The notes beneath the pieces are model-generated. The model searched no databases and was not told the DNA's origin. It was given only the letters and a program-made list of their open reading frames with translations. Shown in pieces: positions 12,595 through 62,477 of a DNA stretch of 64,000 bases. The DNA is from Gemmatales bacterium (GTDB lineage Bacteria > Planctomycetota > Planctomycetia > Gemmatales > HRBIN36), in contig JBEPZY010000003.1 of NCBI GenBank assembly GCA_041640595.1, forward strand, positions 316,242 to 380,241. The letters are read 5' to 3'. Position 1 is the first letter of the stretch. Every line of letters starts with the position of its first letter. Both the position numbers and the translations under genes were made by a program.

Positions 12595-12691
12595 GTGCTA
12601 ATCGAACCAACGTGGGATTGAAAACTTACTCAGGAAGTGAAGGCACGTGTTCGGGCGATGCGTGCTAATTGAACCAACGTGGGATTGAAAA
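12595..12691 (+). CRISPR. Orphan mini CRISPR array: 2 x 30 bp repeats, one 37 bp spacer
   Basis: GTGCTAAT(C/T)GAACCAACGTGGGATTGAAAA at 12595-12624 and 12662-12691 (29/30 identical). The ATTGAAAN 3' end is typical of class 1 (e.g. I-B-like) repeats. No cas genes in the window. Confidence 0.75.
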
Positions 12692-14935: not shown

Positions 14936-15047
14936 GTGCTGGTGGTTCGGAGATTGGCAGCTTAGCTTGCGGCACCACAAGACAGAAGATACGCAACTAT
15001 TTTCTCAAGGTGCTGGTGGTTCGAAGATTGTCAGCTTAGCTTGCGGC
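14936..15047. repeat. 38 bp direct repeat pair separated by 36 bp, overlapping the lon stop codon
   Basis: gtgctggtggttcg(g/a)agattg(g/t)cagcttagcttgcggc at 14936-14973 and 15010-15047, 36/38 identical. Confidence 0.9.
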
Positions 15048-30563: not shown

Positions 30564-31715
30564 ATGGGGAGGCACGCGGCCATGAAGCCAGCGCTGAGCT
30601 TTGCAGGTTCCGCCACGGTTGCTCCTGTCGGAGAACGGGAAATGTGTCCGCGAGAAATGCGCCGCAGAACAGACGGACGTTTCGCATGGCGGATATGGGC
30701 GGGATGGATGGCGCTCGTCCTGGCAGCGCAGCTTGTGCTGGCTGGCGGACTGCTCCAGGCACAAAATCGCAGTACCGTTCGACCGTATCGAACCGACCCG
30801 CAGTTACAAGCGGCGTGGCGAAGTGCGGCATCCGCTGCCGCGAAAAGTGCCGTGCAAATTCTCGTGAACGACGAGCAGGTAGCTCTGGGCACGGTGGTCA
30901 GTGCTGATGGTTACATCCTGACCAAGGCCAGCGAGGTGAAAGGCCCAGCGACAGTGAAACTACCGGATGGCCGGGAGCTGGAAGCCCGCGTCATCGGCCG
31001 TGATGATGCTTACGATTTGCTCCTGCTCCGCGTGCCGGTGCGGGGGCTGCCGCCGGTGAACTGGGCCAATAGCCAGACGGCAGCCGTGGGAAGCTGGGTC
31101 ATCGCTCCGCGACCCAATGGTGAAGTAGCCACTGTCGGGGTGGTGAGCGTTGCCACCCGGCAGGTGCCCGCGCGAGGTCCCGGTTCGTATCCGAATCCCA
31201 ACGTGGGGTACATGGGGGTAACCCTGGCTCCGTCGGAAGACGGGCCGGTTGTTACCGAGGTGGCCGAAGGCAGCCCGGCTCAGAAAGCCGGTCTCCGGCG
31301 GGGAGATGTCATCTACTCCCTGGCCGGTCAGCGTGTTCGCAATCCCGACCAGTTGCTGGACGTCCTGCGTGATTTTGCCCCGGGTCAGACGGTGCGACTG
31401 GTATTACTGCGGGATCAGGAGTTCGTGGAGAAAGAGGTGACGCTGGGCAAACGCCCGATGGACTTCTCGCGGGCGGAATTCCAGAACCGGCTGGGGAACC
31501 AGTTGAGCGAGAAACGTTCTGGCTTTCCGATAGTGCTGCAACACGATGGCGTGATTCGGCCACAGGATTGCGGCGGGCCGCTCGTGAACCTCGACGGCCA
31601 AGTGATCGGCATCAACATCGCCCGCGCCGGCCGATCCGAATCCTATGCGATCCCCGCGGAAGTCATCCAGAAGTTGTTGCCGCAACTTATCCAGGGGAAG
31701 GGCGTCTCGCGTTAG
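30564..31715 (+). CDS. Atypical trypsin-like protein with internal PDZ domain and altered catalytic residues
   Basis: GYILTKASEV (no His); PDZ lies before QHDGVIRPQDCGGPL (Ser replaced by Cys); start uncertain. Confidence 0.8.
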   Translation: MGRHAAMKPALSFAGSATVAPVGEREMCPREMRRRTDGRFAWRIWAGWMALVLAAQLVLAGGLLQAQNRSTVRPYRTDPQLQAAWRSAASAAAKSAVQILVNDEQVALGTVVSADGYILTKASEVKGPATVKLPDGRELEARVIGRDDAYDLLLLRVPVRGLPPVNWANSQTAAVGSWVIAPRPNGEVATVGVVSVATRQVPARGPGSYPNPNVGYMGVTLAPSEDGPVVTEVAEGSPAQKAGLRRGDVIYSLAGQRVRNPDQLLDVLRDFAPGQTVRLVLLRDQEFVEKEVTLGKRPMDFSRAEFQNRLGNQLSEKRSGFPIVLQHDGVIRPQDCGGPLVNLDGQVIGINIARAGRSESYAIPAEVIQKLLPQLIQGKGVSR

Positions 31716-31725
31716 CTGACCGTTC

Positions 31726-32997
31726 TGGTGGCATACGCGGATGCTATTGCAGATATGCGTTTCGCTATACCGGCACGCTGCGTTTGCCACGGGGGGCTGA
31801 CGCCAGCCGCTCTTGGTTGCACGTGCGGATGCTATTGCAGATATGCGTTTCGCTATACCGGGGCGATAAGTTTGCCACGGGGGGCTGACGCCCCCCGCTC
31901 CCGCTGCTGTAATAACGACAGTGCGTCGAGCGAATGGCGATTTTCGGGATGCACAAACGCACATTCACAAGAGCGGCGGGCGTGAGCCCGCCGTGGTTTC
32001 GGAAACCGTGTTCGCAACGGGTATCGTCTATCGCGGGGTGATTGCGTTTCTCGCGCATGACCAACGCCCGCACCACGGCTGGCTGACGCCGGCCGCTCCT
32101 CTGGTTGCGTGTACGGATGCTATTGCAGATATGCGATTCCCTGAACGGGCACGCTAAGTTTGCCACGGGGGGCTGACGCCCCCCGCTCCTGGTGCTGTAA
32201 TAACGACAGTGCGTCGAGCGAATGGCGATTTTCGGGATGCACAAACGCACATTCACAAGAGCGGCGGGCGTGAGCCCGCCGTGGGTGCAATTGGCGCCTG
32301 CAACGGCGGGCGTTTTTGTCGGCAGCGATACGACGGTACGCCGCGGGAGTCGGGCATTATCCGGCGAAAATCGGACCGAGAAACAAGAGCGGCGGGCGTG
32401 AGCCCGCCGTGGGTATGGCGAAAGGAACGTTGCTTGTCATAAGCCGGGAGCGCAGTTTCGAGCGCGGGCTGCTTGCCACGGGGGGCTGACGCCGGCCGCG
32501 CCTCTGGTTGCGTGTACGGATGCTATTGCAGATATGCGATTCCCTGTAGGAGCACGCTACGTTTGCCACGGGGGTCTGACGCCCCCCGCTCCTGGTTGCG
32601 TGTACGGATGCTATTGCAGATATGCGATTCCCTGAACGGGCGCGCTAAGTTTGCCACGGGGGGCTGACGCCCCCCGCTCTTGATGCTGTAATAACGACCG
32701 TGCGTCGGGCGAATGGCGATTTTCGGGATGCACAAACGCACATTCACAAGAGCGGCGGGCGTGAGCCCGCCGTGGGTGCAATTGGCGCCTGCAACGGCGG
32801 GCGTTTTTGTCGGGAGCGATACGACGGTACGCCGCGGGAGTCGGGCATTATCCGGCGAAAATCGGACCGAGAAACAAGAGCGGCGGGCGTGAGCCCGCCG
32901 TGGGTATGGCGAAAGGAACGTTGCGTGTCATAAGCCGGGAGCGCAGTTTCGAGCGCGGGCTGTTTGCCACGGGGGGCTGACGCCCCCCGCTCCTGGT
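31726..32997. repeat. Large REP mosaic cluster including a ~400 bp direct duplication (offset 491 bp)
   Basis: About a dozen hairpin copies in both orientations; ~32101-32490 is repeated from 32592. Confidence 0.92.
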
Positions 32998-35364: not shown

Positions 35365-36687
35365 ATGGCCCAAACCGAACTGACCCGACGTGAGTTTCTG
35401 GAAGAAGGTGCCCTGGTCACCACGGGCGTGGCGGCTACGCTGGCCGCCGTGCCTTTCGTCCACGCAGCCGGTTCCGATGAAATCAAGGTGGGCGTGATCG
35501 GCTGCGGTGGTCGCGGTTCCGGTGCTGCCGAAAATGTCCTGGAAGCTGCTCCGAATGTCCGCATCGTGGCGCTGTGCGATTATTTCCGCCACAAGGCCCT
35601 GGGTTTGCGCAGTCGTCTCATCAAGTTTGCCGAAAGCGAGCGCGTCAAACAACTCGGCAATAAGGTAGATGTCCCGGAAGATCGCTGCTTCGGTGGCTTA
35701 GACGGTTACCGCCGCGTTCTCGAATGCGATGTCAATTATGTCATCCTGGCCACACCGCCGGGATTCCGTCCCGAACATCTCGAAGCCTGCGTCGCCGCGG
35801 GGAAACACATCTTTACCGAAAAACCGGTGGCCGTGGACGGTGCCGGTGTGCGGCTTTGTTTCAAAGTGTACGAAGATGCACTAAAGAAAAACTTAGGTAT
35901 CGCCGCCGGTACGCAGCGCCGTCATCAAGGCCCCTATATCGAAACTATCCAGCGGATTCACGACGGCGCTCTCGGCGATCCGATTGTCGGTCGCTGTTAC
36001 TGGAATCAGGGCGACATCTGGTTCCGCAAACGCGAGTCGGGCATGACCGACCTCGATTATCAAATCCATAACTGGTACCATTTCGTCTGGCTGTGCGGCG
36101 ATCATATCGTCGAGCAGCACGTGCACAACCTGGATGTGATGAACTGGGCCCTGCGTGCCCATCCGCTTCGCTGTTTGGGTATGGGCGGCCGCACGCGACC
36201 CTATACCGACCCGCGCGTGGATGGCCATATCTATAACTTCTTCTGCGTCGAATACGAATACCCCAACGGTTTGCGTGTGCATAGCATGTGCCGGCAGATT
36301 ACCGGCTGCGATGGTAATTTGCCCGGCTCCAGCGGCGTCGCCGAGGTGCTCGTCGGTACCAAAGGCGTCTGCCAGATCAATAACTTCTCCATCAACGGGC
36401 AGTCGGTCGTCTCGCGGCAGAGCAGGACGAAGTTTGCCAATCCCTATATCCAGGAGCACACCGACCTGATCGAGAGTATCCGCGCCGGCAAACCGATCAA
36501 CGAACTCAAGAACGTTACCGAGAGCACCCTCACCGCGATCATGGGTCGGATGTCGGCCTATACGGGAAAAGTCGTCACCTGGGAACAGGCGCTTAACTCC
36601 AAGGAAAAATGGCGGCCCGAACCACTCACGCCCGATAACCTGCCGGTGCCGCCTCTGGCCGTACCAGGCAAGACCGCCCTGGTTTAA
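35365..36687 (+). CDS. Tat-exported Gfo/Idh/MocA oxidoreductase
   Basis: TRREFL Tat motif; IGCGGRG, ATPPGFRPEH, EKPV; AGGAGG RBS. Confidence 0.92.
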   Translation: MAQTELTRREFLEEGALVTTGVAATLAAVPFVHAAGSDEIKVGVIGCGGRGSGAAENVLEAAPNVRIVALCDYFRHKALGLRSRLIKFAESERVKQLGNKVDVPEDRCFGGLDGYRRVLECDVNYVILATPPGFRPEHLEACVAAGKHIFTEKPVAVDGAGVRLCFKVYEDALKKNLGIAAGTQRRHQGPYIETIQRIHDGALGDPIVGRCYWNQGDIWFRKRESGMTDLDYQIHNWYHFVWLCGDHIVEQHVHNLDVMNWALRAHPLRCLGMGGRTRPYTDPRVDGHIYNFFCVEYEYPNGLRVHSMCRQITGCDGNLPGSSGVAEVLVGTKGVCQINNFSINGQSVVSRQSRTKFANPYIQEHTDLIESIRAGKPINELKNVTESTLTAIMGRMSAYTGKVVTWEQALNSKEKWRPEPLTPDNLPVPPLAVPGKTALV

Positions 36688-36724
36688 CCGCAGCGGCAAT
36701 CTCCGCCTGATCGCACTCCTGCCA

Positions 36725-36996
36725 GCTTATCATCGCTGACGCTTCGCCTCGCTGGTGCTGCGCGCCTGCTGCGTCACCTTCATTCAGGCTTCACGCTTCC
36801 TTTATGGCCCGCTTGCGTATCCTCGCTGACATTGCGCGCATAGTGCCTCGCATTCAGTCCTGCTTCGCACTCGTTTGATGGCCCGATGGCTTATCCAGGC
36901 TGATGTTGCGCACCTAGTACATCGCCTTTAGTCGTGCCGCACAATCGCTCAATGCCCGATTGCTTATCCTCGCTGCTGTTGCGCGCGTGGTGCACC
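36725..36996. repeat. Degenerate tandem repeat (73-74 bp period) directly upstream of the CRISPR-like array
   Basis: gc(t/g)tatc..(c/g)gctg..(g/a)ttgcgc core at 36725, 36815, 36889 and 36962. Confidence 0.65.
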
Positions 36997-37181
36997 GTGC
37001 CAGGCTCCCAGTCCGACACGCGCCCGCCGCGACGGGGACGAGCCGGGAGTACCGATTCCTGGCCCCGTAGTGTCAGGCTCCCAGTGCGACGTGGGCCCGC
37101 TGCGACCCCGGGAAGTGGGGGGCGTAGCTCAACTGGTTAGAGTGGTGCCCGGCTCCCAGTGCGACACGCGCGTACTGCGAC
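36997..37181 (+). CRISPR. Orphan degenerate CRISPR-like array: 3 x 37 bp repeats, spacers 36 and 38 bp
   Basis: Repeats at 36997-37033, 37070-37106 and 37145-37181, consensus GTGCCAGGCTCCCAGTGCGACACGCGCCCGCTGCGAC (R1 differs from R2 and from R3 at 6 positions each); unrelated spacers; GT..GAC ends. Confidence 0.7.
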
Positions 37182-37310
37182 ACAGTGTGTGCTCCATCGC
37201 CGGCTAGCCGCTTGACCATCCCACCGCGGCATAACTGGTGCGTCCGGTCGGCTCACTGCCGGTCTGGCGCTTTGGCAGGCGCTTTGCCACCGGCGAACGA
37301 TCGTGCTGCA

Positions 37311-37625
37311 ACCAAGAGCGGGGGGCGTCAGCCCCGTGGGTCCGCTACCGAGACTGCACCGGCGTTTGTGAGCACACTGCCGGCAGTCTCCCCGACTTTC
37401 CGGAAGCGTTCCTGCAATTGCGTTTACCGAACCGCTCTTGGTTGTGTGTTCGGCCGTTGCTGAATAACATCGGCTCCTCACGGCGCAGCGATCGTATGTC
37501 CGAACCACGGCGGGCTGACGCCCGCCGCTCCTGTTGATGTGCGCTTGTGCATCGTGGAGGGCGATTTCTTCTCACAACGCAAGTAGTGCACAAAGAGCGG
37601 CTGGCGTGCGTAAGCCAGCCGTGGT
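37311..37625. repeat. REP mosaic cluster
   Basis: caagagcggggggcgtcagccccgtggg, ccacggcgggctgacgcccgccgctcctg and others; linkers shared with the 42-43 kb cluster. Confidence 0.88.
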
Positions 37626-37726
37626 ACATGAGCTGACATAGGGAGAAAAAATTGCACATTCAGTCCCAGGGCGTGCCTGTCGCCGCCAGGGACGTTGAAG
37701 GCCATTGCACTGTTCGGCGGAAGGTA

Positions 37727-38953
37727 TTACGGCAGCGTCCCTGCTACGGACTCGAAGTTCACAATTTCGACAGCCACATTCAGGCCGCTATTGCCGCTGC
37801 CGCCAATACTGTCATTGCCGCTGCCGCCGTCGAACAGGTCCAGATGCGGCGGCCCAGGTTGGAAGGTGTTGCTGTTCAGCGTGACGGTATCGTCGCCGGC
37901 GCCCATGTCGGCGGTAACATTACTCGACGAGAAGGAAGAGTTCTGAATGGTCAAGAAATCATTGCCGGCCAGCGTGCGGATATTCGTCGGGCCCAGCAGC
38001 ACGCTGATTTTGTCCAGCGCGATATTGTCCACGCCGGAGCCACCCAGGATGGAGAGCAGACCGAAATCGGTGGACGTCGTCCCATTACCAATGTTCAGCA
38101 GGTTTGCCCCGTCGCCCAGAACTATGGCTGCCCCGAGGGTAACGCTAACGGCCGTCGTCGTGCCGATGTTCACCGTGTCATCGCCGAGACCGGTGTTCAG
38201 CGAAAGGATTTTGTACGTTCCATCGTCCAGCGTCACCTGATCATCGCCATCGCCGGTGCCAATGGTCAACGGGCCCGAAGAAACGTCAGCCCCATCCAGC
38301 TTCACCTGATCGTCGCCGGTCTGAGTGCGGATGGTCAGGCTGGCATTGAACGTCGTTGAGCCTGTGATGTTGACCGTAGAATCCATATCGCTGCCGCGGA
38401 TGGCAGTCGGTTTGTCGAAGGTAGCGTTATCTATGCTGACGGATTCATTTAGGGAACCCGTGTCCAGGGAAATGCTGACGGAAGACGAGAAATGGGAGCC
38501 GTTGTTGATGGTGACGCTGTCATCGCCGCCGCCGCCGCGAATGGTAGTGGTGCGAGCTACGGAGACATTGGCCACCTCGAGGGTGTCGTTGTCGTTGCCG
38601 CCGTTATACTGTAGCAGCCGCGATAAAGTCAGGCCGGTAACCGTATTGCCCGGCGTTTTGCCGAGAGTCACCGAATCGTCGCCATCGTTCATACGGATGT
38701 CGAGACCGGCGACGTTCGCCGCCAGGAAGGACACCGATGGGTTGCCGTTGACGGTTGTACTGCTGCTGCCTTCAACAACAACATTACTACCTTGCAGATA
38801 CACGAAAACGCTGTTGCTCTGCGCGTCGCCGACAATGCGCAGGGTGCCGCCGACCAGCGTGGCCGACACGTTCCCCGCGGGGACAGTGCGATCTTCCAGG
38901 ATTTCGACCCGCAGCGATTGCTGCCGAACCTTGCCATCACCGAGCCAGGACAT
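37727..38953 (-). CDS. Planctomycete extracellular LEPR-XLL-like beta-helix protein (third paralog)
   Basis: LRVEILEDRTVPAGNV and GxGDD repeats; AAGGAG RBS. Confidence 0.87.
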   Translation of the reverse strand: MSWLGDGKVRQQSLRVEILEDRTVPAGNVSATLVGGTLRIVGDAQSNSVFVYLQGSNVVVEGSSSTTVNGNPSVSFLAANVAGLDIRMNDGDDSVTLGKTPGNTVTGLTLSRLLQYNGGNDNDTLEVANVSVARTTTIRGGGGDDSVTINNGSHFSSSVSISLDTGSLNESVSIDNATFDKPTAIRGSDMDSTVNITGSTTFNASLTIRTQTGDDQVKLDGADVSSGPLTIGTGDGDDQVTLDDGTYKILSLNTGLGDDTVNIGTTTAVSVTLGAAIVLGDGANLLNIGNGTTSTDFGLLSILGGSGVDNIALDKISVLLGPTNIRTLAGNDFLTIQNSSFSSSNVTADMGAGDDTVTLNSNTFQPGPPHLDLFDGGSGNDSIGGSGNSGLNVAVEIVNFESVAGTLP

Positions 38954-42242: not shown

Positions 42243-43868
42243 CAAGAGCGGCGGGCATGAGTAAGAGCGGCGGGCGTCAGCCCGCCGTGGTTCGGACATA
42301 CGATCGCTGCGCCGTGAGGAGCGGATGTTATTCAGCAACGAGCGAACACACAATCAGGAGCGGCGGGCGTCAGCCCGCCGTGACTCGGTAAACGCAATTG
42401 CAGGAACGCCTCCGGAAAATCGGGGAGACTGCCGGCAGTGTGCTCACAAACCTGGTCCAGTCTCGGTAGCGGACACACGGGGGCTGACGCATTACCCTGG
42501 ATTGGGAAACAACTTTATGCATACGGAGGTGCAGTCTCGGTACCGGACCCACGGGGGGCTGACGCCCCCCGCTCTTGTGTTGGTGTGCGGACGTCTGCCG
42601 ATGAAAAAAAGATTTTTGCGATGCACGAACGCATATTACCAGGAGCGGCGGGCGTCAGCCCGCCGTGGTTTCGGGAACCGTGTTTGCAACGGGGATCGTC
42701 TGTCGGAGGGTGATTGCGTTTCTCGCGCATGACCGACACCAGGCGACCGATGGGGAACAAGGGAAGCATAGTGGGGGGTTATTACGTTTCCCGCGCATGT
42801 CCGACACTCGAACCACGGCTGGCTTACGCCAGCCGCTCCTGTTCGGATGTGCGGAGGCGTTTGCACCGTAAGGCTCGTTTTCCGCCGGTTCGTTTCGCCT
42901 CGCGCGATGGCTAGCCACGGGGGGCTGACGCCCTCGCTCTTAATTCCCATGTGCCGAGGCGTTTGCACAGTAACGCTTGTGTTCCGCCGGTTCGTTCTGC
43001 CTCGCACGATGACGAACCCACCGGGGCTCGGTAAACGCAATTGCAGGAACGCTTCCGGAGAATCGGGGAGACTGCCGGCAGTGTGCTCACAAACGCCGGT
43101 GCAGTCTCGGTACCGGACCCACGGGGGGCTGACGCCCCCCGCTCTTGATTGGTGCACGACCGTTCGCCGGTGGAAAAACGCCTTTTGCGATGCACGAACG
43201 CACATTACCAGGAGCGGCGGGCGTCAGCCCGCCGTGGTTCGGAAACCGCGTTTGCAACGGCGACCGTGTATCGCGGGGTGATTGCGTTTCTCGCGCATGA
43301 CCGACACCAGGCGACCGATGGGGAACAAGGGAAGCATAGTGGGGGGGGTGATTACATTTCCCGCGCATGTCCGACACTCGAACCACGGCTGGCTTACGCC
43401 AGCCGCTCCTGTTCGGATGTGCAGAGGCGTTTGCACCGTAAGGCTCGTTTTCCGCCGGTTCGTTTACTTGCCACGGGGGGCTGACGCCCCCGCTCTTGAT
43501 TCGGATATACGGAGGCGTTTGCACCGTAAGGCTCGTTTTCCGCCGGTTCGTTTGCTTGCCACGGGGGGCTGACGCCCCCCGCTCTTGATTCCGATATGCC
43601 GATGCGTTTGCACAGAAACGCTTGTGTTCCGCAGGTTCGTTCCGCCTCGCGCGATGGCTAACCACGGGGGCTGACACCCCCCGCTCTTGATTCCGATGTG
43701 CCGATGCGGTTGCACAGTAACGCTTGTGTTCCGCCGATTCGTTTACTTGCCACGGCTGGCTTACACCAGCCGCTCCTGTTCGGATGTGCCGATGCGTTTG
43801 CACAGAAACGCTTCTGTGCCGCGAGATCGTTCGCTTGCCACGGGGGGCTGACGCCCCCCGCTCTTGCT
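42243..43868. repeat. Very large REP mosaic cluster (~1.6 kb)
   Basis: More than 15 hairpin copies; ~42640-42895 repeated at ~43208-43464; ~89 bp sub-units at 43468-43868. Confidence 0.93.
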
Positions 43869-43880
43869 TGTCGTTCGGTT

Positions 43881-59617: not shown

Positions 59618-61303
59618 ATGTATCGGCGAATGTTACCGCTGGCGCTCGCGTGTCTGGTCGGCCTGACCGTCCAGCCAGCTCTCCAGGCTGCACAGGACCT
59701 TACCGGAACCTGGAAACTCACGGTCTATTTCCCGACCAGCGAGATGGACCTGTGCCTGCTCAAGATCATCCGTGAAGACAATCAGCAGTGGCGGGCTACT
59801 GTTATCGCTCGCGGTCTGCAGGGTGTCGAGCGCCTCACTGCCGAGAAGATCGAGGTGCTGCCCGACCGCCTCAAAATCGTACTGGATGTCGGCGGCGAAA
59901 CGTTTGTAATGACTGCCCGACTTCCCGACGCGAAAAGTACTAAGCTGTACGCTTCGCTGACACGTCGGGCGGACCTTGCCTGGCCTGCCATTCTGGAACG
60001 CACGGAGGCAAATGATTTCGCCGGTCAGAAAACGACCCGGCAGTCGGCTGCGCATGAAGCCTATATCAAGGCCGGCCGGACCGCTAATGTCGAACAGCAG
60101 CGCGACCTGCTCCGCGAATTGCTCAAGCAACATGGCGATCATCCCGTAGCCATCTACGCTGCGGTGCGGCTCGTGGATCATGCCGCTGATTACGAGGATG
60201 ATCGCAAGATCACGCAGACTCTGGCTCAGGATAGCCTGCAACGGGCCGAAATCTTTGGCCGGGACATGGTGCGGTCGGTGGCCTGGCAACTCGGCCAGAT
60301 TCTGCTGCAGTCGGCAAAAGCCCGAGCGCTGGCGGCCAGCTATATCCAGAAGGCCGTCGAATTATTCGATGCAGATACCCCGGCCGACTTTCAGGAACGT
60401 GCTTACAAGGCACTGGCAAAAGCCTATCGCGCAGCCGGTGAACCACAGCGTGCGGAAGCACTGACGGCCAAAATTGCCGAACTCGAAAAGCAAGCCGATA
60501 CGGAATATCGCCGCAAGATGCCGCCGTTCAAAATTACCCCTGCTCAGCCTCGGGACGCAGAGGGCCGCGCGGTCGTATTAGAACTCTTTACCGGTACACA
60601 ATGTCCGCCTTGTGTGGCCGCAGATGTTGCCTGCGATGCCATTGCTCAGACCTACCCGACCAGCGAGGTGATTTTGTTGCAGTACCACCTGCATATCCCG
60701 GGCCCCGATCCGCTGACCAATCCGGAGACGGAACGGCGAAGCGAATTTTACGGCGTCCGCGGCACGCCTACCGCGTTTCTCAACGGCAAACCCACTCCGC
60801 CGCTCGGCGGTGCCCTCGTCCATGCCGAACAGCGTTACCGCACGCTGGTCAAACTCATCGAGGCAGAACGCCAGCAAAAGCCCGCCTGTCGCGTGCAACT
60901 GTCTGCTCATCGCCAGGGCGACCAGCTCGACATCGAGGCAACCGTGACCGGCCTGGCCAACCCGCCCGAAAAAGCCCGACTACTTCTGGTGCTGGTGGAA
61001 GAGGAAGTGCGGTACGCGGCTCCGAACGGCATTCGCTTTCATCATCACGTGGTTCGTGCGTTTCCCGGCGGTCAGCAAGGTTTTGCCCTGCAGAAGGACA
61101 AAACCCACCAGAAAGTGCGGGTGGTGCTGAGCGACCTTCGCAAGGATTTGCACAGCTACCTCAACCGCGTCGCCGACTCCGGGCCATTCCCCGACGATGA
61201 CCGACCCCTGGAATTGCGGAAACTCAAAGTGGTCGCCCTCATCCAGGACCTCGCCACCCGCGAAATCCTCCACGCCACTATCACCGCCATCCCGGCAGAG
61301 TGA
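59618..61303 (+). CDS. Secreted protein with helical repeats and a thioredoxin-like CPPC domain (Omp28/DUF1223-like)
   Basis: AAGGAG RBS; signal peptide; ELFTGTQCPPC, YHLHIPGPDP, GTPT, NGIRFHHHVVR. Confidence 0.82.
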   Translation: MYRRMLPLALACLVGLTVQPALQAAQDLTGTWKLTVYFPTSEMDLCLLKIIREDNQQWRATVIARGLQGVERLTAEKIEVLPDRLKIVLDVGGETFVMTARLPDAKSTKLYASLTRRADLAWPAILERTEANDFAGQKTTRQSAAHEAYIKAGRTANVEQQRDLLRELLKQHGDHPVAIYAAVRLVDHAADYEDDRKITQTLAQDSLQRAEIFGRDMVRSVAWQLGQILLQSAKARALAASYIQKAVELFDADTPADFQERAYKALAKAYRAAGEPQRAEALTAKIAELEKQADTEYRRKMPPFKITPAQPRDAEGRAVVLELFTGTQCPPCVAADVACDAIAQTYPTSEVILLQYHLHIPGPDPLTNPETERRSEFYGVRGTPTAFLNGKPTPPLGGALVHAEQRYRTLVKLIEAERQQKPACRVQLSAHRQGDQLDIEATVTGLANPPEKARLLLVLVEEEVRYAAPNGIRFHHHVVRAFPGGQQGFALQKDKTHQKVRVVLSDLRKDLHSYLNRVADSGPFPDDDRPLELRKLKVVALIQDLATREILHATITAIPAE

Positions 61304-62477
61304 CGGGCGGTGGTGGTGGTGGTGGTAAAAAAGGAGAAGGACGATGATTGTCGTCGAGTGGGTATCTCGGCAGAGTGACGGGCAGTGGTGGTGGTTGTGG
61401 TAGTGGTCGTGGCGCGAAATCCTCCACCTCGGATTTGCGAGCAGTACACCCCCGGTCACAGAGGAGAAGGAGAAAGATTATGACCACTATGTACCCTATT
61501 ATCGACTGTAAATCCCAAGGGTCACCAGAATTCGGATTGCCGGACTTTGCTGGCGGTGGGGTTTCGGCATCCTGTACTCCCCTAAGCTTACGTACCCTTT
61601 GCCGCTTGGACGTGCTTTGCCGCTTGGACGTGGTTTCGGCATCCTGTACTCCCCTAAGCTTACGTACCCACTCGCGGGCTGGGCGGCGTCTCCAGCGTTT
61701 GCCTGCTCCGGGCTGGAGCAGTTCGTCCAGACAGGCGATCTCCGCCGCGCTCAACCCTTCGCGCTCGTACTCTCCGCGCTCTTCCCGCTTGATGATCTCC
61801 ACGACATTCTCGCCGAACGGCTGCCGTCCCGTCCGCAAGCGCACATAGGTCGCGCACAACGCATATACATCTACCCAGTCCACCAGCGTGCCCTGGTAAC
61901 ACTCTGGCGGAAGATAACCGAGCGTCCCGACGCCCGAATGCGATACCGTGCTCAGTCCCATCTGCTTGACCAGCCCGAAATCGCCTACCTTCACGTGCCC
62001 GTGTACCAGAAACAGATTCCGCGGGTTGATGTCGCGGTGGTAAATACCGCGTTCATTGAGAAAATCAATCGCCTCGGCTGCCTCCTCCATCCAGGGAAGC
62101 AACTCCTGAGCAGAAAACGGCCCACGCCCATCAATGAGCCGCTCTTGCAGGGCACTTTCCAGCGTCTCGTCCGCCAGTTCCCAGACCGTTACCACATGAC
62201 CCAACGCCGTACCGAACCTCACGAGTTGCAACAGGTGCGGATGGCCATTCAGATCCCGCACCATCTTCAGGGCATTCCATTCGTGCTCATCCACCTCCAC
62301 GGGGTCTTTGCTGATTTTGACTGCCCGCTGCAAGCCGTCAATTTCCTCGCGGAACACGTAATTGAACCCGCCGTCGCCGAGCGGATTATCCAGCTTCCAG
62401 CCATACCGTTTCCGCAACACGTCGATCACCTGAGCAATCGAATGCCGACGCCCTTCCCGCCCGGATGCACCAGCCAT
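61281..62477 (-). CDS. Ser/Thr protein kinase with TM segment and duplicated C-terminal segments
   Basis: LGDGGF, AVKI, HRDINPRN, DFGL, YLPPE; overlaps the convergent gene by 23 bp. Confidence 0.8.
   Translation of the reverse strand: MAGASGREGRRHSIAQVIDVLRKRYGWKLDNPLGDGGFNYVFREEIDGLQRAVKISKDPVEVDEHEWNALKMVRDLNGHPHLLQLVRFGTALGHVVTVWELADETLESALQERLIDGRGPFSAQELLPWMEEAAEAIDFLNERGIYHRDINPRNLFLVHGHVKVGDFGLVKQMGLSTVSHSGVGTLGYLPPECYQGTLVDWVDVYALCATYVRLRTGRQPFGENVVEIIKREERGEYEREGLSAAEIACLDELLQPGAGKRWRRRPAREWVRKLRGVQDAETTSKRQSTSKRQRVRKLRGVQDAETPPPAKSGNPNSGDPWDLQSIIGYIVVIIFLLLLCDRGCTARKSEVEDFAPRPLPQPPPLPVTLPRYPLDDNHRPSPFLPPPPPPPVTLPGWR

Follow-up and report, generated by a model that had tools for sequence, protein, structure and literature searches.

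The stretch of DNA analysed here, 64,000 nucleotides (nt) from a Gemmatales bacterium (hereafter the window, whose numbering we use unless another contig is named), corresponds to positions 316242-380241 of contig C3 of the genome G000, an assembly of 4.45 Mb with 58% G+C in 42 contigs that is an estimated ~95% complete. At 36997-37181, within a 1-kb gap separating two convergent genes, it carries a mini-array of three 37-nt repeats that looks like a small CRISPR array, and in which one of the two inserts contains the beginning of a transfer RNA (tRNA) gene of the host. Our interpretation, to which we give a probability of roughly 0.7, is that the mini-array is a scar of off-target ("neo-CRISPR") integration by a resident CRISPR adaptation module linked to a reverse transcriptase (RT), and that it holds a spacer derived from a host tRNA and has no guide function. 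CRISPR adaptation enzymes most likely made the locus. This departs from an earlier note on the same DNA, made from the sequence alone, which had read the array as a guide for an effector encoded elsewhere, serving to home to, silence or attack a tRNA locus.

The anatomy of the locus formally fits the layout of a CRISPR array. Its three direct repeats (repeat 1, 36997-37033; repeat 2, 37070-37106; repeat 3, 37145-37181) start 73 and 75 nt apart and enclose unique inserts of similar length, 36 nt (insert 1, 37034-37069) and 38 nt (insert 2, 37107-37144), which are unrelated to each other in sequence. The earlier note had described just this arrangement of three 37-nt repeats with 36- and 38-nt spacers and had called it CRISPR-like, and we can confirm both. 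The repeats are 78-84% identical to one another, repeats 2 and 3 each showing 84% identity to repeat 1 and being alike at 29/37 positions when counted manually, and their ends are better kept than their middle. Because repeat 1 matches repeat 3 with an E-value of 3.5e-4 over the 4.4-Mb genome, this likeness is beyond chance. None of six folds of the repeats was better than shuffled sequence (z +0.70 to +2.09), and neither were two folds of the 211-nt region (z -0.06 and +1.04), where we found no conserved hairpin and no promoter-like site.

The repeat itself is unique. It matches none of the three real repeat types resident in the genome and has no Rfam CRISPR-DR match, and neither a sequence search nor a profile search found any other significant copy in G000. 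It has no match in 40 relatives, in none of which, same-genus relatives included, is the locus conserved. Among ~185,000 species genomes (the genome_contigs collection) there are 31 scattered matches of one exact copy each, a count in which diverged neighbouring copies were left unchecked, and the 241 million records of metagenome_contigs contain only a contig identical to the window and one chance match in a coding region. As for insert 1, it has no match longer than 14 nt in its own genome, phages match it at chance level only (E 5), and two exact scans of viral_contigs gave no match. By eye it had seemed a T-arm-like piece, an idea that was dropped in view of the missing genome match and the lack of any model match.

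Insert 2 is far more informative. Its positions 12-38 (37118-37144, in tRNA sense on the plus strand) are identical at 27/27 positions to C9:172288-172314 (E 6e-9). Since C9:172288-172362 is called by ARAGORN as tRNA-Asp(GTC), the sole tRNA-Asp(GTC) of the genome, the match covers tRNA positions 1-27, and its first base coincides with that of the called gene, the presumed mature 5' end. When 30 tRNA-Asp loci from G000 and its relatives were compared, the exact 27-mer was found in only one, the gene of G000 itself; of the same-genus relatives, G003 differs at one position and G001 and G002 at two. The 11 nt that precede the tRNA piece (37107-37117), which vary among strains and which we regard as noncoded, agree with the upstream flank of the cell's own tRNA-Asp at 4/11 positions and with that of any of the 30 loci at 5/11 at most. 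Since the 27-mer is private to the G000 gene and the flank does not match, the sequences indicate that the tRNA piece derives from the tRNA-Asp of its own lineage, and not from a copy of the gene together with its flank. The earlier note had taken the insert for gene flank plus tRNA positions 1-27, of which the tRNA part stands and the flank does not.

The tRNA match stops where repeat 3 starts, as had also been noted, except that the cut is not as exact as it had seemed: the junction is ambiguous by 3 nt, since GTG occurs at tRNA positions 25-27 and also opens the repeat. Across the junction (37142-37152), the first bases of repeat 3 (GTGCCCGG) moreover resemble the tRNA-Asp sequence that follows in the gene at positions 25-31 (GTGCCGG), a likeness at the junction that may reflect microhomology at insertion. 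As a possible source of the 11 nt we also considered the tRNA-Asp flank of G007, a locus outside the 30; its 7/11 matches (manual count) are not significant over ~30 genomes. Nor is the 75-nt unit a decayed tRNA or tRNA pseudogene, as there is no covariance match and the similarity to tRNA-Asp ends at position 27. ARAGORN finds 0 tRNA genes in the window, where Rfam at gathering scores reports no family and, at E-values up to 10, no tRNA match in the window and no CRISPR-repeat match on the three repeats.

The genome is well equipped with the enzymes that could have made such a structure. Contig C1 carries cas2 (C1:356211-356405), a stand-alone RT gene, cas1 and then an array of 247 repeats of 37 nt. 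The RT (550 aa; RVT_1, E 1.6e-33) is encoded separately from the 342-aa Cas1 and is not fused to it. The 246 spacers of this array range from 33 to 40 nt, and 218 of them are 36-38 nt long (36 nt, n=81; 37 nt, n=99; 38 nt, n=38). On C8 and C10, type I-B and III-B genes are accompanied by 317 and 27 repeats of 30 nt, and a second adaptation set, cas1-cas2-cas4, whose Cas1 is without RT, adjoins arrays with >340 repeats. Resident adaptation modules are thus present and have been at work. A type III-A fragment with 6 repeats is found on C20. The duplicated target at our locus is 37 nt long, equal to the C1 repeat, and its inserts fall within the spacer-length range of that array. Because 37+36 and 37+38 nt are unit sizes of the C1 array, the lead goes to the C1 module, and the locus would be a product of its 37-nt, RT-linked integrase.

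A wider test of this idea is whether units of the same geometry are common elsewhere in the genome, and they are. With the four real arrays masked, a stringent survey of near-exact direct repeats at periods of 40-130 returned 64 hits at 53 loci for periods 66-67 and 138 hits at 82 loci for periods 72-75, compared with 7 hits for periods 60-64, 20 for 68-71 and 44 for 76-87. The lengths of the duplications peak at ~28-31 nt and 35-38 nt. Further peaks occur at periods 88-93 and 126, and those in the window overlap clusters of a hairpin repeat described below. In a relaxed survey (at least 28/37 matches, flanks at most 45% identical), the single periods 66, 67, 73, 74 and 75 yielded 54, 40, 52, 63 and 49 hits, respectively, compared with 59 hits for 22 control periods summed. 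Periods 66-67 and 73-75, at which the excess is ~15-20-fold over other periods, are the unit lengths of the two array types of the genome, and the mini-array belongs to the 73-75 class. In the range of the locus, 29-31/37 matches, there are 58 hits, the unit of repeats 1 and 2 included, where 3.55 are expected. Off-target integration by the two resident Cas1-Cas2 integrases is the simplest account of these units, the duplicated sequences of which are unrelated from one unit to another.

The duplications may also carry a trace of the site preference of the 37-nt module. Seven of 37 class-A (37-nt) duplications match at least 6/8 bases of the start of the real repeat, a score reached by 153/3000 random 37-mers and by 0/27 class-B (30-nt) duplications. 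Read on the minus strand, the presumed sense, repeats 1, 2 and 3 begin with GTCGCGGC, GTCGCAGC and GTCGCAGT, respectively, and match the real repeat start at 5/8, 6/8 and 5/8 bases exactly at the boundary. Three more units of the 37-nt class lie in the window at 14936-15047, 61560-61669 and 61293-61402, with periods of 74, 72 and 75 and duplications of 38, 38 and 35 nt. Yet another unit of this class, at C9:139927-140041, has an insert that matches 23/24 nt inside the type I-B cas1 on C8 and may be a spacer from the cell's own cas1.

A second line of evidence lies in the origin of the inserts. Fragments of tRNA or ribosomal RNA (rRNA) genes lie outside their genes at six places in G000, and five of these six are spacer-sized inserts between direct repeats. 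Apart from tRNA-Asp 1-27 in the mini-array, where the flanking repeat has a period of 75, they are tRNA-fMet ~3-36 at C1:23456-23488 (period 74, between two 37-nt repeats alike at 27/37 positions), tRNA-fMet 16-46 at C3:145964-145994 (period 76), 23S rRNA 1845-1879 at C3:554068-554102 (period 73) and 23S rRNA 411-446 at C3:484615-484650 (period 66). The sixth, the 3' end of tRNA-Arg (positions 55-76) at C1:308113-308134, is without such a period and resembles an ordinary copy of an attachment site. Not one of 592 real-array spacers matches a tRNA or rRNA gene. In two cases, Asp (from position 1) and fMet (from position 3), the insert extends to the 5' end of the tRNA; both belong to the 37-nt class, and in both the gene flank is replaced by unmatched nucleotides, 11 and 5, respectively. 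The rRNA genes themselves have a peculiarity, in that the 16S match at C1:23944-26497 spans 2554 nt compared with a model of 1533 positions and the 23S match at C5:166219-170885 spans 4667 nt compared with 2925 positions. Since the spans exceed the model lengths, insertions of ~1 and 1.7 kb apparently interrupt these genes. The small contigs C27 and C36 carry two further 23S copies.

How the locus might have arisen can be pictured as follows. The cas2-RT-cas1 module would have struck a stretch of ordinary intergenic DNA similar, at its end, to the start of the module's own repeat. A spacer-sized piece would have been ligated in, and repair of the gaps would have duplicated the 37-bp target, generating a repeat-insert-repeat unit. 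Two such events at the site, or one event and then another directed at the newly made repeat, would yield three repeats. Insert 2 would have come not from the gene but from processed tRNA-Asp RNA by way of the reverse transcriptase, with the 11 nt added as a pad up to spacer length. We infer this RNA route from two features of the insert, its start at the first tRNA base and the 11 unmatched nt that fill the spacer length. The scar would serve no guide function, as the repeat of the locus is unlike the real repeats. This lack of function would also explain why a self-matching spacer persists here and none is found in the real arrays.

Several known systems offer precedents for parts of this scheme. 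Off-target Cas1-Cas2 integration yielding neo-CRISPR loci was reportedly described in type I-E Escherichia coli by Nivala, Shipman and Church in 2018 (Nat Microbiol 3:310). The mini-array resembles that case in its spacer-sized inserts, in its duplication of repeat length and in its non-CRISPR site, which may be partly repeat-like, and repeated hits there can likewise build a small array. Non-canonical integration has been shown in E. coli with over-produced Cas1-Cas2, and two other species provide circumstantial evidence of it (PMC7054753, 10.1101/148544). In contrast, our locus is a natural, fixed scar of an RT-linked 37-nt module, one among well over a hundred units. By their titles and the openings of their abstracts, papers on neo-CRISPR and off-target Cas1-Cas2 integration describe no natural scars on such a scale and none with tRNA-derived inserts, and the natural frequency of off-target spacer integration has been called an open question (10.1101/148544).

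For the choice of stable RNA, the closest parallel is type III-A adaptation. Type III-A Cas1-Cas2 samples rRNA and tRNA loci heavily, taking the transcribed part only, and in the presence of the effector the resulting spacers disappear (Aviram et al. 2022, PMC8860600; Zhang et al. 2021, PMC8860593). That pattern is mirrored in the present genome by 0/592 real spacers and five scar inserts, although those studies concern induced laboratory systems without RT that are read within hours, and here we have an evolutionary record kept outside arrays. RT-associated type III adaptation modules, reportedly the subject of Silas et al. 2016, are a third parallel. The C1 module shares with them an RT beside cas1 and cas2 with a large array, and the unmatched nucleotides of the inserts would correspond to their spacer padding. 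For RNA-derived spacers made by RT-Cas1/Cas2, Mohr et al. 2024 (PMC11014452) describe noncoded nucleotides at one end that complete the spacer length. The cases differ in that the RT of G000 is a separate gene and that the unmatched stretches measure 11 and 5 nt compared with 1-6 there, and, unlike in the RT-Cas1 systems, an RNA origin is here deduced from the boundary at tRNA position 1.

Metagenomes offer a view of the locus in nature. We aligned contigs from four public hot-spring runs (X2, X3, X4 and X15) over 36300-37900. X2 contains a contig identical over 36300-37375. X3, X4 and X15 contain a variant strain that has the array and in which positions 37073 and 37094 of repeat 2 read as in repeat 1. 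In addition, two contigs of X15, and a second form in X15 and X4, have repeat 1 fused to insert 2, so that these alleles lack insert 1 and repeat 2. In a single X15 contig, 37028 is followed directly by 37177, a joint that would leave one lone repeat and whose shorter side measures only 26 nt. Natural populations thus gain or lose repeat and insert together, as whole units, and in contigs gain and loss look alike. X15 is an RNA library, and its contigs cover the region without giving RNA ends or strand, which is no proof of transcription.

A number of observations weigh against an integration scar. One is the uneven decay: the repeats differ at 6-8/37 positions and the tRNA piece is intact at 27/27, for which we estimate a chance of ~0.04-0.08 under even neutral decay, or ~0.2 if the clustered changes at 22-25 and 28-30 count as single events. 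Over its whole length, the repeat matches the real repeat at only 13-15/37 positions (manual count). At 11 nt, the unmatched stretch is longer than the 1-6 nt reported for the Marinomonas enzyme (PMC11014452). The relaxed set of 324 scar units contains no tRNA-derived insert; those inserts lie in more diverged units and were found only by a search starting from tRNAs. Scar counts, too, take in paralogous and tandemly amplified copies. The rRNA insert with period 66 sits in a scar of the 30-nt class, whose Cas1 is without RT, so a stable-RNA origin does not by itself prove reverse transcription. No relative retains the intergenic region, which leaves no clean empty site for comparison, the sole joint that would represent a single repeat comes from one contig with a 26-nt side, and unit-wise alleles can also be produced by deletion between repeats. 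Finally, the action of an integrase at the locus is something we infer from sequence, and the tandem repeat next to the array needs an extra assumption, to which we now turn.

This tandem repeat, D1 (36733-36993), which the earlier note leaves unmentioned together with the hairpin cluster to the right, abuts the array on its left and has a period of 74 nt (3.4 copies and 70% matches in TRF). It contains four copies of a 40-nt core that are 60-83% identical and spaced 74, 74 and 73 nt apart, with a similarity of ~70% over whole units, and no further copy occurs anywhere in G000. On our interpretation D1 would be an older scar, probably copied by unequal recombination, and its amplification is the extra assumption. 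D1 and the mini-array do not form one array of seven units, as in-register alignment scores 52 and out-of-register alignments 55, 51, 51 and 51; they have a common period and no significant sequence similarity (local-alignment permutation p 0.33). A likeness of the locus to tandem repeats near C3:145.8-146.1 kb, suspected by eye, found no support in a profile search.

A plain 74-nt tandem repeat next to the array invites the alternative that the array, too, is an ordinary local tandem duplication, a minisatellite at a rearrangement breakpoint that captured the tRNA-Asp piece without any CRISPR involvement, for example as filler where a DNA break was repaired, before decaying. It is exactly at the locus that gene order ceases to be conserved relative to G001, G002 and G003, the repeats are only 78-84% identical, and the region folds no better than shuffled sequence and is without a promoter-like site, all of which such an origin would accommodate. 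We nevertheless consider it unlikely. Slippage copies whole units, and here the inserts are unrelated and only the 37-nt parts are alike; the sizes equal those of the resident array (37 nt, with 36 and 38 nt between); exactly this geometry is in ~16-fold excess in the genome; and units of this kind hold four more stable-RNA fragments. The fallback offered by the earlier note, a tRNA fragment in a local tandem duplication, therefore comes near the truth as we see it and misses the mechanism indicated by the genome-wide period test.

Integration by the C1 module is also preferable to the idea that the locus is the decayed remnant of a once-real CRISPR array with a repeat type of its own, whose system has since been lost. 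Three repeats with conserved ends and a variable middle, together with unique spacer-sized inserts, are what one would expect of such a remnant, and the window does contain orphan copies of a real repeat in degenerate form (12595-12691). However, no array with the repeat turned up in the ~185,000 species genomes, where its 31 matches are all single, or in the 241 million metagenome records, Rfam CRISPR-DR models do not match it, the locus is absent from same-genus relatives, and the spacer holds the host's own, lineage-specific tRNA allele. We regard a lost array as quite improbable.

That leaves the proposal of the earlier note, in which a working orphan array would give transcripts that act in trans, homing a transposon to tRNA-Asp or regulating or attacking it. 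Type V-K CRISPR-associated transposons home by means of a self-matching tRNA spacer, and the mini-array shares with the homing spacers of such transposons (types V-K and I-F3) the form of a diverged, cas-detached repeat-spacer unit matching a tRNA gene. Its better conserved repeat ends are in keeping with a guide as well, as is its presence in RNA-library contigs (X15), which do not prove transcription. However, a guide needs an effector that recognises its repeat, and both the unlike repeat and the outcome of the effector searches speak against one. The repeat differs from all three resident types, so that the resident processing enzymes should not recognise it. The linked cas12 or tnpB gene that the proposal calls for did not appear: the TNB domain (PF07282), and with it any sign of Cas12k, Cas12 or TnpB, was not found in the 95%-complete genome, in a search whose control was positive in 8/14 genomes, and TniQ (PF06527) was not found in a search that is uninformative, its control having given no signal. 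Among the 37 open reading frames (ORFs) of the window that were scanned, there is no cas, transposase or integrase gene, a scan in which the tnsB and tnsC families were not searched as such.

The target speaks no better for a guide. The spacer matches the tRNA over 27/38 nt and not over its whole length, as homing by such transposons would have it. Because the 11-nt flank fails to match, there is no protospacer with a protospacer-adjacent motif (PAM) at the tRNA-Asp gene. The locus is conserved in 0/40 relatives, and one of its units is missing from some natural strains. The earlier note had itself named, as findings that would count against a guide, a repeat that recurs in no other array or cas locus and the lack of a tRNA gene with the matching flank, and for the most part this is what we see, the repeat being found in no other array or cas locus of the genome, the 40 relatives, genome_contigs or metagenome_contigs. 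Homing or guidance in trans is not supported, and we hold a working guide to be very unlikely.

Least credible of all is a relic of the attachment site of an integrative element targeting tRNA-Asp, for although tRNA-Asp is a frequent target in relatives, nine genomes of which have 3' fragments from positions 28-33 apart from the gene, and although the locus fragment ends at position 27 and is likewise a partial tRNA copy away from its gene, attachment-site duplications are 3' parts (tRNA-Arg 55-76 here; tRNA-Asp 28/30/33-75 in relatives) and our locus has the 5' part, which site-specific integration does not duplicate, framed by 37-nt repeats, with no integrase among the 37 ORFs scanned, an intact tRNA-Asp gene on another contig, and >300 kb between the locus and either end of the contig on which the locus lies. 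The tRNA-Asp 3' fragments, which start at position 28, 30 or 33, occur in G020, G021, G027, G028, G029, G030, G031, G035 and G036, and suggest that integrative elements in this order commonly use tRNA-Asp as an attachment site.

If the mini-array is indeed an integration scar, it is a readable example of natural off-target integration in a genome with well over a hundred such units, and it adds data on insert origin, in that the piece comes from a host tRNA, has its boundary at the presumed mature 5' end and carries an untemplated pad. The contrast seen with type III systems in the laboratory would be mirrored in a wild genome, with 0/592 real spacers and five scar inserts from stable RNA. It also serves as a warning that the background of scars in a genome needs checking before any small, diverged and cas-detached array with self-matching spacers is taken for a guide. 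More speculatively, and at less than even odds, off-array scars might be an uncensored natural ledger of what the RT-linked module captures. Processed tRNAs would be copied from an internal start to the mature 5' end, padded and integrated, and self-spacers would be kept only where they are unused, the real arrays being purged by type III autoimmunity. If so, natural evidence of RNA-derived spacers from host stable RNA, and of their counter-selection, would come for the first time from the mini-array and its four sister loci.

The genomic setting of the mini-array is otherwise ordinary. On its left lies a GFO/IDH/MocA-type oxidoreductase gene (35365-36687, plus strand), right after which the gene order shared with relatives ends. 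On its right lies a gene for a 408-aa protein without family match (37727-38953, minus strand), whose ortholog in G003 is 77% identical and has other neighbours.

The resident arrays left two further observations. Contig C15 (9.6 kb), probably a phage or plasmid against which the population was adapting, is matched at 88-100% by at least 30 spacers from one end of the C8 array (C8:17493-21014). The orphan unit at 12595-12691 of the window consists of two degenerate, real 30-nt I-B/III-B repeats (4 and 5 mismatches) around a 37-nt spacer. This spacer also matches C15, at 91% over 34 nt, and the unit is solitary and far from any cas gene.

Between the mini-array and the right-hand gene, and outside the array, lies a cluster of a dispersed hairpin repeat (37277-37626) that resembles repetitive extragenic palindromes or miniature inverted-repeat transposable elements (REP/MITE-like). 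It includes an inverted pair at 37313-37334 and 37512-37533, and reaches very high depth in metagenomes. The locus query has 85 further matches in G000, all to its positions 678-1027 and so to this family, one copy of which is weakly like Rfam CRISPR-DR29 (E 0.66, under threshold). The repeat has a GC-rich stem with the core GGCGGGCGTCAGCCCGCC and forms clusters with periods of 88-93 nt, in the window at 37277-37626, 42265-43870 and 31700-32900, as well as at many other sites in the genome, and copies are also present in several related genera.

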